From NCBI RefSeq assembly GCF_003334305.1, contig NZ_QOWS01000046.1: a stretch of DNA of 7,574 nucleotides; one strand, written 5' to 3'. Of this stretch, positions 1,011 through 7,396 are shown in pieces; position 1 is the stretch's first letter; each line of letters begins with the position of its first letter. This DNA is from Escherichia coli. Lineage in GTDB: Bacteria; Pseudomonadota; Gammaproteobacteria; Enterobacterales; Enterobacteriaceae. The position numbers and the translations under genes are program-made. The notes below the pieces were generated by a model. The model made no database searches. It saw only the letters and a list, made by a program, of their open reading frames with translations, and had not been told where the DNA came from.

Positions 1011-1038
1011 AAAAAAAGGGCCCTGAAATTCAGGACCC
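1011..1038 (-). terminator. Rho-independent terminator of proS
   Basis: Read on the minus strand: GGGUCCUGA-AUU-UCAGGGCCC, a 9-bp stem with one G-U pair and a 3-nt loop, followed directly by U7 (plus-strand a7 at 1011-1017). It begins about 10 nt downstream of the proS stop. Confidence 0.8.
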
Positions 1039-1047
1039 TTTCTGGCA

Positions 1048-2766
1048 TCAGCCTTTAATCTGTTTCACCAGATATTCGACGATGTCACCAGTCTTAATTA
1101 ACTGTTTCTCGCCGTTGCGACGATATTTATATTCGATATCGTCGTTGTCGAGGTTACGGTCGCCCAGCACAATAGTGTGCGGAATACCGATCAGTTCCAT
1201 ATCAGCAAACATCACGCCCGGACGCTCTTTGCGGTCATCCAGCAGCACTTCGATACCTTGTGCACGCAGTTCGCTGTACAGTTTCTCAGCAAGCTCTTGT
1301 ACGCGGAAGGATTTGTGCATGTTCATCGGCAGAATCGCCACCTGGAACGGCGCGATAGCGTCAGGCCATACGATGCCTCGTTCGTCGTAGTTCTGCTCAA
1401 TCGCCGCAGCTACCACACGCGTTACCCCGATACCGTAGCAACCCATCGTCAGGATTTGGTTACGGCCATCTTCACCCTGTACGGAGGCTTTCAGTGCTTC
1501 GGAGTACTTGGTACCCAGCTGGAAGATGTGACCAACTTCGATACCACGTTTGATCAGCAGCGTACCCTGGCCATCCGGGCTTGGATCGCCAGCCACCACG
1601 TTACGGATATCTGCAACTTCCGGGGTAGCGACATCGCGATCCCAGTTGATGCCGAAGTAGTGTTTACCATCGATGTTAGCACCAGCAGCGAAATCACTCA
1701 TCGCCGCAACGGTACGGTCAATCACCACCGGAATCGGCATGTTTACCGGACCCAGTGAACCCGGACCGGCTTTAACCACGGCACGAATTTCTTCTTCGGT
1801 CGCGAAAGTCAGCGGGCTTGCAACCTGCGGCAGTTTTTCTGCTTTAACTTCGTTCAGCTCGTGATCACCGCGCACCAGCAGCGCAACCAGCGGGAAGCTA
1901 CTGCCTTCAACCGCTTTAACCAGCAGAGTCTTAACCGTTTTCTCAATCGGCAGATTGAACTGTTCAACCAGTTCCGCGATGGTTTTCGCGTTCGGCGTAT
2001 CAACCAGCGTCATTTCCTGGGTAGCAGCAGCGCGCGGTTCTTTCGGCGCGATAGCTTCTGCCAGTTCAATGTTCGCTGCATAGTCAGAGGTGTCGGAGAA
2101 GACCACATCGTCTTCACCGCTCTGCGCCAGCACCTGGAATTCGTGAGAGGCGCTGCCGCCGATAGAACCGGTGTCGGCTTGTACGGCGCGGAAATCCAGC
2201 CCCATGCGGCTGAAGATTTTGCTGTAGGCCGCATACATTGCATCGTAGGTTTCCTGCAGGGATTCCTGAGAAGTATGGAAAGAGTAAGCATCTTTCATCA
2301 GGAATTCGCGGGAACGCATGACGCCGAAACGCGGACGCACTTCGTCGCGGAACTTGGTCTGGATCTGATAGAAGTTCAGCGGCAGCTGTTTGTAAGAGCT
2401 AAGCTCGTTACGAATCAGGTCAGTGATAACTTCTTCATGAGTTGGGCCGAGTACGAACGGACGCTCGCCACGGTCAACAAAACGCAGCAGTTCCGGACCG
2501 TACTGTTCCCAACGACCACTCTCTTGCCACAAATCAGCTGGCTGAACCACCGGCATCGACACCTCGATCGCACCGGCGTTGTTCATCTCTTCACGCACGA
2601 TGTTTTCGACTTTTTTCAGAACGCGCACGCCGGTCGGCAGCCAGGTATATAACCCGGAGGCCAGCTTGCGGATCATCCCGGCGCGCAGCATCAGCTGATG
2701 GCTGATCACCTCGGCGTCGGCAGGTGTCTCCTTGAGAGTGGAGAGCAGGTATTGGCTAGTACGCAT
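1048..2766 (-). CDS. proS: Prolyl-tRNA synthetase (class II aaRS with INS editing domain), 572 aa
   Basis: The 590-aa ORF contains the recognisable ProS sequence starting [20 protein letters not shown] at an internal ATG (2764-2766), giving 572 aa. The 18 upstream in-frame codons are treated as non-coding leader. Confidence 0.96.
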
Positions 2767-2877
2767 GTTGTTACGGTTCCAGTTGGAAGGTAGAACAGGC
2801 TCAAGGCGAGCCTGGGACAAAAAAAAGTGATTTAGTTTACCAGTGCAAAAGAAATGTCAAAAGAGAAGGGCGTGAAT

Positions 2878-3585
2878 TTAACGCGGTTCCAGCGCAAAGA
2901 CTTCAAAACCTGCGTCGGTGACGCGCCAGCGAACGTTAAAATCATGTAGCCAGACGGCATAGGTTTTGCCCGTTTCCTCACCTTTACGATAGGCCGGGCG
3001 TGGGTCCTGCGCCAGTACTTCGCGGATAAACAGCGTTAACTGCGGATAACGCTTCTCCAGCGTCAAAAGCTGCTTTTCGACCTCTGCGGTAAAACTCACC
3101 GCCATCTCTGCCGCTGGCGCACTTTGCGCATAGCTGGCACTGGCATCGGGAAGCGATTCGGCAAAGGGGAGATACGGTTTGATATCCACTACCGGCGTAC
3201 CATCGACCAGATCCAGACTGCCGAGCTTCAGAATCACGCTGTCTTTATGGCAAACAACCTCTTTCAGCTCTACCAGCGACATACCAATTGGGTTAGGGCG
3301 GAAAGTAGAGCGTGTTGCGAAAACCCCCATTCTGGCGTTACCGCCGAGGCGCGGTGGACGCACAGTCGGACGCCAGCCGCCTTCCATCGTTTGATGAAAG
3401 ACGAAAAGGATCCATAAATGGCTGAACGCTTCCAGGCCGCGAACGGCGTCGGCCTGGTTGTAGGGAGCAATGAGATGCAGTTCGCCGTTGGCGCTTTTTA
3501 CCAGACCTGGCTGGCGCGGAACGGCGAATTTTTCTTTATAGGGCGAGCGAATAACGCCTATTTGCTCGAACTGGAAACTGCTCAT
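2878..3585 (-). CDS. trmO: tRNA (adenine37-N6)-methyltransferase TrmO (formerly YaeB/TsaA), 235 aa
   Basis: ORF translation MSSFQFEQIGVIRSPYKEKFAVPRQPGLVK... recognised as E. coli YaeB/TrmO with matching length. Its ATG overlaps the rcsF stop (ATGA). Confidence 0.94.
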   Translation of the reverse strand: MSSFQFEQIGVIRSPYKEKFAVPRQPGLVKSANGELHLIAPYNQADAVRGLEAFSHLWILFVFHQTMEGGWRPTVRPPRLGGNARMGVFATRSTFRPNPIGMSLVELKEVVCHKDSVILKLGSLDLVDGTPVVDIKPYLPFAESLPDASASYAQSAPAAEMAVSFTAEVEKQLLTLEKRYPQLTLFIREVLAQDPRPAYRKGEETGKTYAVWLHDFNVRWRVTDAGFEVFALEPR

Positions 3586-4048: not shown

Positions 4049-4066
4049 GACGGGCAAGCGCCCGTC
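4049..4066 (-). terminator. Probable intrinsic terminator downstream of metQ (end of the metNIQ operon)
   Basis: Minus-strand hairpin GACGGGC-GCUU-GCCCGUC (7-bp GC-rich stem) followed by UUGUCAUUUUUA, about 38 nt after the metQ stop. The U-tract is interrupted, hence moderate confidence. Confidence 0.5.
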
Positions 4067-6823: not shown

Positions 6824-7396
6824 GTGGCGAAGAGCGTACCCGCAATTTTTCTTGACCGTGATGGCACCATTAATGTCGAGCACGGCTATGTCCATGAGAT
6901 CGACAACTTTGAATTTATCGACGGTGTTATTGACGCCATGCGCGAGCTAAAAAAAATGGGCTTTGCGCTGGTGGTAGTAACCAACCAGTCTGGCATTGCT
7001 CGCGGTAAATTTACTGAAGCGCAGTTTGAAACGCTGACCGAGTGGATGGACTGGTCGCTGGCGGACCGCGATGTCGATCTGGATGGCATCTATTATTGCC
7101 CGCATCATCCGCAGGGTAGTGTTGAAGAGTTTCGCCAGGTCTGCGACTGCCGCAAACCACATCCGGGGATGCTTTTGTCAGCACGCGATTATTTGCATAT
7201 TGATATGGCCGCTTCTTATATGGTGGGCGATAAATTAGAAGATATGCAGGCAGCGGCTGCGGCGAACGTGGGAACAAAAGTGCTGGTGCGTACGGGTAAA
7301 CCTATTACGCCTGAAGCAGAAAACGCGGCGGATTGGGTGTTAAATAGCCTGGCAGACCTGCCGCAAGCGATAAAAAAGCAGCAAAAACCGGCATAA
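6824..7396 (+). CDS. gmhB: D-glycero-beta-D-manno-heptose-1,7-bisphosphate 7-phosphatase GmhB (HAD superfamily), GTG start
   Basis: ORF (M)[24 protein letters not shown]... with HAD motif I DRDGT. RBS AGGAG at 6810-6814, 9 nt upstream of GTG at 6824. Stop TAA at 7394-7396. Recognised as GmhB/YaeD. Confidence 0.93.

Follow-up and report, generated by a model that had tools for sequence, protein, structure and literature searches.

A conserved stem-loop behind a U-rich 5' tail in the mapped leader of the Escherichia coli proS mRNA

As judged from sequence comparison, the hairpin between trmO and proS of E. coli is a structured cis-acting RNA element of the proS 5' UTR, since it is contained in a mapped transcript and its helix is backed by compensatory substitutions. 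The pattern of nucleotide exchange among related leaders shows that the stem-loop is maintained by selection as a base-paired structure. This previously undescribed leader element is best filed in the broad class of structured 5'-UTR cis-elements; a literature search found no paper describing a proS leader element. With regard to its role, we tentatively favor the proposal that the proS leader represents a translation-initiation module, in which a U-rich landing tract for ribosomal protein S1 and the 30S subunit together with a clamp hairpin would offset a weak Shine-Dalgarno sequence.

The window, i.e., the whole stretch of DNA that was analyzed, comprises 7574 nt and is identical to positions 216010-223583 of NC_000913.3 (E. 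coli K-12 MG1655). A 251-nt query around the hairpin found a match with at least 95% identity in 5425 of 5426 complete E. coli genomes, at a median of one copy. In NC_000913.3, the trmO-proS spacer is devoid of annotated RNA or regulatory features. The proS ATG is located at 2766-2764 on the minus strand, and the following features are given in window coordinates:

1048..2766, minus strand: proS coding sequence, proline--tRNA ligase (RefSeq annotation of NC_000913.3)
2767..2795, minus strand: 29-nt ribosome-binding stretch from the hairpin to the AUG, including GGAA at 2780-2777 and the invariant UGGAACCGUAACAAC
2796..2814, minus strand: leader stem-loop CAGGCUC-GCCUU-GAGCCUG, +15..+33
2819..2826, minus strand: U8 tract (A8 on the plus strand), leader +3..+10
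2828 (genome 218837), minus strand: main proS transcription start (A), from SMRT-Cappable-seq
2834..2842, minus strand: extended -10 element TGgTAAACT, with TG at 2842-2841 and the hexamer TAAACT at 2839-2834
2855..2860, minus strand: -35 hexamer TTGACA of the proS promoter, read from the sequence, 15 nt upstream of the -10 hexamer
2878-3585, minus strand: trmO, with its stop codon at 2880-2878
yaeF, rcsF, and metQIN: minus strand of the window
gmhB: plus strand of the window

TTGACA, the 15-nt spacer, and TGgTAAACT were shown to form a sigma-70 promoter that starts transcription at window position 2828, as the start predicted from the promoter coincides with the mapped start at genome position 218837, 6 nt downstream of the -10 hexamer TAAACT. 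In the SMRT-Cappable-seq data (Yan et al. 2018; PMC6131387), a reverse-strand transcript spanning 217019-218837 is listed for b0194, supported by 476 reads in one condition and 441 in another. The same data contain a second proS start at 218988 (window 2979) inside the trmO coding region, a rcsF-trmO-proS read-through unit from 220022 (window 4013), and a rcsF-trmO unit from 220072 (window 4063), with both of the latter starts being situated upstream of rcsF. In the part of the data set that was available, A(+1)C(+2)U8 is the sole start reported at the 2828 promoter, and the other listed start, 218988, is located 151 nt upstream. No match for the proS start was obtained in the Cappable-seq supplements. 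The consensus promoter scan called no promoter at proS, which is explained by the spacer of 15 nt, as the scan permits 16-18 nt.

Given the start at 2828, the proS mRNA begins with A-C-U8 and carries the hairpin inside its 5' UTR. A structure in the 5' UTR was one of several options offered in the initial annotation, together with start mapping as a way to check it, and the option is borne out since the start at 218837 lies upstream of 2796 and the hairpin is thus within the mRNA. The complete leader measures 62 nt and is composed of A-C-U8 (U8 at +3..+10), GUCC, the hairpin at +15..+33, and a stretch with GGAA at +49..+52, followed by the AUG at +63. The further option that the T-rich tract is an UP-like promoter element had to be dropped. 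UP elements are A/T-rich and reside at about -40 to -60, but the T-tract (2826-2819) is found at +3..+10, downstream of the start, and therefore is not an UP element.

For comparison, proS upstream regions were collected from 80 genomes and by a metagenome scan with a degenerate promoter pattern excluding the E. coli allele, and this combined sampling resulted in 57 unique leaders with proS downstream. The -35 region CTTTTGRC is nearly invariant in 15 Enterobacterales and in the 57 unique leaders, of which the metagenome loci were selected by pattern, and CTGGTAAACT, representing the extended -10 element, varies little or not at all between E. coli and genera as distant as Yersinia and Photorhabdus. 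Because CTTTTGRC and CTGRTARACT constituted the search pattern for the metagenome loci, independent conservation is provided only by the genome-derived loci, in which hardly any variation of the -35 and the extended -10 elements was seen, even in Yersinia, Acerihabitans, and Photorhabdus.

In some lineages, namely a Klebsiella sp. BIGb0407-like lineage and an Acerihabitans-like metagenome contig (loci L004:1853-2010, L124, L194, and L084), a strongly folding insertion of 60-110 nt, ending with ...ACGGGTATA, is situated within the proS promoter/leader. By its sequence, this insertion looks like a small TA-targeting mobile repeat. Three of the four insertions give rise to TATAAA, 3 nt ahead of the T-run, a hexamer that possibly serves as a replacement -10 element.

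The hairpin had initially been described as a 7-bp stem at 2796-2814 with an A8 run at 2819-2826, and these coordinates are exact. On the plus strand, CAGGCTC (2796-2802) and GAGCCTG (2808-2814) constitute a perfect 7-bp inverted repeat enclosing the 5-nt loop AAGGC, and reading along the proS sense strand gives U8-GUCC-hairpin. Folding prediction assigns -11.2 kcal/mol to the isolated hairpin and pair probabilities of 0.95-0.99 to its helix in the leader ensemble. At 25, 37, and 42 C alike, the ensemble prediction leaves the U-tract about 95% unpaired, which gives no support to a fourU-type thermometer, in which the U-tract pairs with GGAA. Dinucleotide shuffling of the 111-nt intergenic region yields a perfect 7-bp hairpin in 2.8% of cases, the window contains five perfect 7-bp hairpins (3.3 +/- 2.4 expected) and two A8 runs (0.62 expected), and the fold z-score of the leader is -1.5 to -1.8. 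Hence, neither the hairpin alone nor A8 alone exceeds chance, and it is because of its conservation and not because of folding statistics that the hairpin was judged to be real. An Rfam search of 2500-3100 with a permissive E-value returned two chance-level matches (E 2.7 and 5.5), which score far below the gathering scores and do not cover the hairpin. The second A8 run, at window 6949-6956, is located within the gmhB coding sequence and represents a candidate slippage-prone homopolymer.

The proS reading frame is open through the leader to TTG 2820 (ORF 1048..2820, 590 aa). A leader peptide or N-terminal extension starting from this in-frame TTG was discarded, as the TTG is positioned at +9 and lacks a Shine-Dalgarno sequence. 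Among relatives, the leaders measure between 57 and 75 nt, so that the TTG frame is not kept and the open frame is considered accidental.

It is very improbable that the hairpin weakly terminates, pauses, or 3'-protects the rcsF-trmO transcripts and in this way attenuates read-through into proS; attenuation of read-through had been listed as a possibility at the outset. This proposal could refer to the detection of both a rcsF-trmO unit (220072) and a rcsF-trmO-proS unit (220022) by SMRT-Cappable-seq (PMC6131387), of which the former implies that some transcripts stop after trmO and before proS is complete, and to UUCU directly 3' of the hairpin. However, the 0-2 nt following the stem do not lead into the U-rich tail of an intrinsic terminator, with the sequence reading UUCUACCU and U8 lying on the wrong, i.e., the 5' side, and a terminator scan of 2400-3300 was empty. 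Furthermore, in the available part of the Term-seq list (Adams et al. 2021, PMC7815308; one data set), 214116 and 219994 are consecutive minus-strand 3' ends, and no 3' end maps to the trmO-proS spacer. In addition, in every genus the hairpin accompanies the promoter and the ribosome-binding site of proS. The intrinsic terminator was therefore rejected, in agreement with the non-terminator orientation already recognized in the initial annotation, and the idea of attenuation found no support, with rcsF-trmO-proS read-through transcripts being detected.

The 3' end at 219994 (window 3985) is a strong one in the accessible part of the Term-seq data and lies at the very start of rcsF (PMC7815308). 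Close by, at window 4049-4066 downstream of metQ, the minus strand reads GACGGGC-GCTT-GCCCGTC followed by TTGTCATTTTT, a hairpin with tail that is a plausible intrinsic terminator of metNIQ. It overlaps the rcsF start found by SMRT-Cappable-seq at window 4063.

Evidence for the helix was obtained from 44 distinct Enterobacteriaceae-type leaders, which were aligned with MAFFT and served as the covariation set. In this alignment, 98.7% of the cells belonging to the 7-bp helix are paired, and two-sided compensatory changes affect three of the seven stem pairs. In detail, pair 7 occurs as GC (19), CG (18), and UA (1), pair 6 as UA (33), CG (9), and GC (1), and pair 2 displays one AU-to-UA change. 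In whole-structure controls, in which helices 1 and 2 were treated together, none of 500 shuffles matched the observed pairing or covariation score. Pairing falls to 12-56% if the 3' partners are slid, and the RNAalifold consensus is the same helix. Conservation of the stem, a further point put up for checking at the beginning, thus holds in the form of a helix that is kept with compensatory changes. In contrast, a small UUCC/GGAA helix, predicted in E. coli to hide the Shine-Dalgarno-like motif, is paired in 69.9% and shows zero two-sided changes; it was rejected as not conserved.

Within the Enterobacteriaceae, the outer five pairs CAGGC/GCCUG are nearly invariant. More distant genera carry unrelated stems in the same position, i.e., GGCUGCC/GGCAGCC in Serratia-like leaders, GCUGC/GCAGC in Yersinia and Acerihabitans, and CUGGCAA/UUGCCAG in Photorhabdus. 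When the alignment was turned into a covariance model, this model recovered the Serratia-like, Yersinia, Acerihabitans, and Photorhabdus leaders, and a search with this model beyond the Enterobacterales returned no homologous leader. Among 53 unique leaders, 47 distinct hairpin sequences with a median of -11.2 kcal/mol were counted, and loop sequence as well as loop length vary. In Enterobacteriaceae-type leaders, the first base of the hairpin falls at +13..+17 (+15 in E. coli), and the 3' edge of the hairpin is situated 29-30 nt before the AUG in nearly all of them, with a variable sequence in between.

The combination of a variable loop, variable half-site spacing, and compensatory changes points to an RNA structure rather than a DNA operator or a loop-specific ligand. 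A site for a specific factor, be it a DNA-palindrome operator at +15..+33 or an RNA operator bound by ProRS (as in thrS) or by an sRNA, is accordingly regarded as highly unlikely. The near invariance of the outer five pairs in the Enterobacteriaceae would fit such a site, and thrS provides a precedent for synthetase autoregulation via leader hairpins. Nevertheless, the spacing of the half-sites varies with the top pairs and the loop length, which is incompatible with a dimeric DNA operator and rules it out. A thrS-like operator was rejected as well, since loop sequence and length vary and a conserved GG-containing, anticodon-like motif is absent; likewise, the unrelated stems of distant genera speak against a specific factor. 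The accessible portion of the Hfq CLASH data contains no sRNA hybrid in the proS leader. Its single hybrid at proS involves ChiX and is located at the proS stop codon/3' end (genome 217039-217071, window 1030-1062).

In front of the hairpin, the 5' tail has a median U content of 73%, and its longest T run has a median length of 7 and a range of 3-8 (53 leaders). The motif "ACTTTT" is invariant in the 44 leaders, and in these Enterobacteriaceae-type sequences little or no variation affects UGGAACCGUAACAACAUG, the start context (CA-C), or the four T with which the tract opens. Further on, the homopolymer is often interrupted (CTTTTGTTTTG, CTTTTTACTTTTTT, CTTTTGAAAATTTT; CUUUUGUUUUG, CUUUUUACUUUUUU, CUUUUGAAAAUUUU), with U-richness persisting. 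T6-T7 is found in E. albertii and most other Enterobacteriaceae, and E. coli strains exhibit a T7/T8 length polymorphism with identical promoter and hairpin (loci L202-L205).

Beyond the Enterobacterales, the 130 nt upstream of proS (loci L016-L081) often contain a -10-like hexamer, a GC-rich discriminator, and a T-run, e.g., TAGAATGGCGGCAATTTTTTCAG and TATACTTGCGCCAATTTTTTCAG. A run of at least three T occurs 4-9 nt after a -10-like hexamer in 31 of the 66 non-enterobacterial proS upstream regions compared to 3.2 +/- 1.7 in shuffles, an enrichment that is indicative only, as these regions are phylogenetically related. A (C/T)GGAA motif 8-12 nt before the ATG is widespread in the non-enterobacterial regions.

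These observations lead to a rather unlikely explanation at the level of transcription initiation, according to which T8 at +3..+10 would give rise to an all-rU:dA hybrid at promoter escape, causing RNA polymerase to stutter or abort and thereby throttling proS transcription or rendering it UTP-sensitive, in the manner of upp, codBA, and pyrBI. The hairpin would then be a separate device, e.g., one that halts slippage or backtracking once folded. In case of upp, UTP-dependent reiterative transcription operates, and the architecture is nearly the same, with TATAAT-CCGTC-GA-T8-G in upp and TAAACT-AAATC-AC-T8-G in proS. As in upp, T8 of proS extends from the third base after the upstream-most start and is followed by a G, and in upp and proS it is equally distant from the -10 hexamer. 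Reiterative initiation requires a homopolymer of at least 3 nt beside the start (PMC8812562; PMC12709180), and T8 is such a tract. The invariance of "ACTTTT", the enrichment of T-runs behind -10-like hexamers outside the Enterobacterales, and the fact that the T-run adjoins the start although the hairpin parts it from the ribosome-binding site can all be cited in its favor.

On the other hand, the single mapped proS transcript starts with a two-base A-C anchor ahead of the U-run. Transcripts of upp with a two-base anchor (G6 starts, GA-U8) reportedly mostly escape reiteration. Across the genome, productive slippage goes along with tracts whose first nucleotide is the start itself (PMC12709180). 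Unlike upp, proS is not a pyrimidine gene and is without pyrimidine logic, and its homopolymer is interrupted in many genera whereas U-richness is kept. Moreover, upp carries no conserved hairpin after T8, and initiation-level action leaves the selection on the proS stem unexplained. A literature search found no paper linking proS to reiterative transcription. In its most far-reaching form, which we regard as improbable, the upp-like T8 would make the synthesis of ProRS depend on the UTP pool or on the kinetics of promoter escape via reiterative or abortive transcription, with a T-run that is ancient across the Gammaproteobacteria and a hairpin that ends slippage or fixes the productive transcript. 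If true, an aminoacyl-tRNA synthetase gene would join the pyrimidine genes, the only ones for which nucleotide-sensing control of initiation is known. The upp-like T8 offers a cheap test of reiterative or abortive initiation outside pyrimidine genes.

The translation-initiation module that we favor would act after transcription. The initial statement that proS has a poor Shine-Dalgarno sequence is correct, as it consists of a weak GGAA 10 nt before the AUG, which is nevertheless invariant in the 44 leaders, as are the GGAAC..ATG columns in total. In this module, the unpaired U-rich 5' tail would offer the 30S subunit a landing site or enhancer via ribosomal protein S1, aiding a start with a poor Shine-Dalgarno sequence. 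The end of the hairpin, 29-30 nt before the AUG, would correspond to the 5' edge of the ribosome footprint. As a structural clamp, the hairpin would fold 19 nt away and bring the U-tract beside the ribosome-binding stretch, and it may also shield this stretch from pairing with upstream RNA, both in promoter-initiated and in rcsF-trmO read-through transcripts.

We favor an action on translation because the spacing between hairpin and AUG is fixed and GGAA is weak but invariant. Further support comes from hairpin-less Gammaproteobacteria, since in their short proS leaders the T-run follows the -10 element and is thus located directly upstream of (C/T)GGAA; folding of the enterobacterial hairpin would restore this proximity. 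U-rich or AU-rich tracts upstream of weak Shine-Dalgarno sequences are known to bind S1 and to enhance translation, and the U8 of rnd reportedly acts as such a U-rich enhancer. The structural features of an S1-dependent U-rich enhancer are present in proS, with a predicted P(unpaired) of 0.95 for the tract and the weak GGAA downstream.

Several points run counter to a role in translation. In the primary sequence, the U-tract is 52 nt away from the AUG, which is further than in characterized enhancers. In every lineage the T-run adjoins the transcription start, a position that suits a role at the level of initiation of transcription equally well. The fixed distance between hairpin and AUG could partly stem from mutational bias, given that indels arise easily in a homopolymer and not in mixed sequence. 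Finally, a clamp does not obviously need so stable a stem.

Stability of the stem is of relevance for a further proposal, considered unlikely, that concerns mRNA decay. The hairpin would either block 5'-end-dependent scanning or entry of RNase E, or it would become a 5'-terminal protective stem-loop after a cut in the U-tract, and the U-rich tail would be an access site for a nuclease, RppH, or Hfq. Such a function would account for a stable hairpin of any sequence near the 5' end behind an unpaired U-rich tail, the identity of the loop being immaterial. RNase E prefers U-rich single strands, and stem-loops reportedly obstruct its scanning. Against this, the 14-nt unpaired tail disqualifies the hairpin as a 5'-terminal stabilizer of the ompA type, a scanning barrier requires no fixed distance to the AUG, and in the accessible part of the Hfq CLASH data proS is represented only at its 3' end and by no hybrid in the leader.

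The sequence AACAACAUG directly before the proS start codon (window 2764-2772) is invariant and contains ACA sites, ACA being the cleavage motif of MazF. Judging from this motif, cleavage by MazF at AACAACAUG could generate a near-leaderless proS mRNA under stress. A table of the MazF regulon includes proS (PMC5001579).

The proS gene is essential, and a stem-loop supported by covariation and a conserved U-tract are now located in the leader of its main transcript, and this in the best-studied bacterium. The leader thereby offers a concrete and easily mutated target for asking how the output of ProRS is set. If it merely tunes translation from a weak start, it would be an ordinary but previously undescribed leader element.

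Compared to known systems, the proS element shares with intrinsic terminators a GC-rich 7-bp stem, a short loop, and an adjoining run of eight U. It differs from them in that, on the transcribed strand, the U-run comes before the hairpin, and in that the other strand reads A8. With stabilizers of the ompA type it has in common a stable stem-loop near the 5' end of the mRNA whose sequence is not critical. However, protective hairpins are located within a few nt of the 5' end, and the proS hairpin starts at +15 (+13..+17 in Enterobacteriaceae-type leaders) behind its U-rich tail, for which reason this class was rejected. Similar to the thrS operator and the pheST attenuator, the proS element is a conserved structure in the leader that precedes a synthetase gene, but this leader measures just 62 nt and is without anticodon-arm mimic, leader peptide, and terminator; unlike for thrS and pheST, we know of no described control of proS. 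The leader of rnd, encoding RNase D, resembles that of proS in that the 5' UTR of a gene with a poor initiation region harbors both U8 and a GC-rich stem-loop, the U-tract being single-stranded. Both the GC-rich hairpin and U8 are reportedly needed for translation of rnd. The order of the two elements is opposite, as in rnd the hairpin is followed by U8 directly before the Shine-Dalgarno sequence, whereas in proS U8 occupies the extreme 5' end and the hairpin lies in between.
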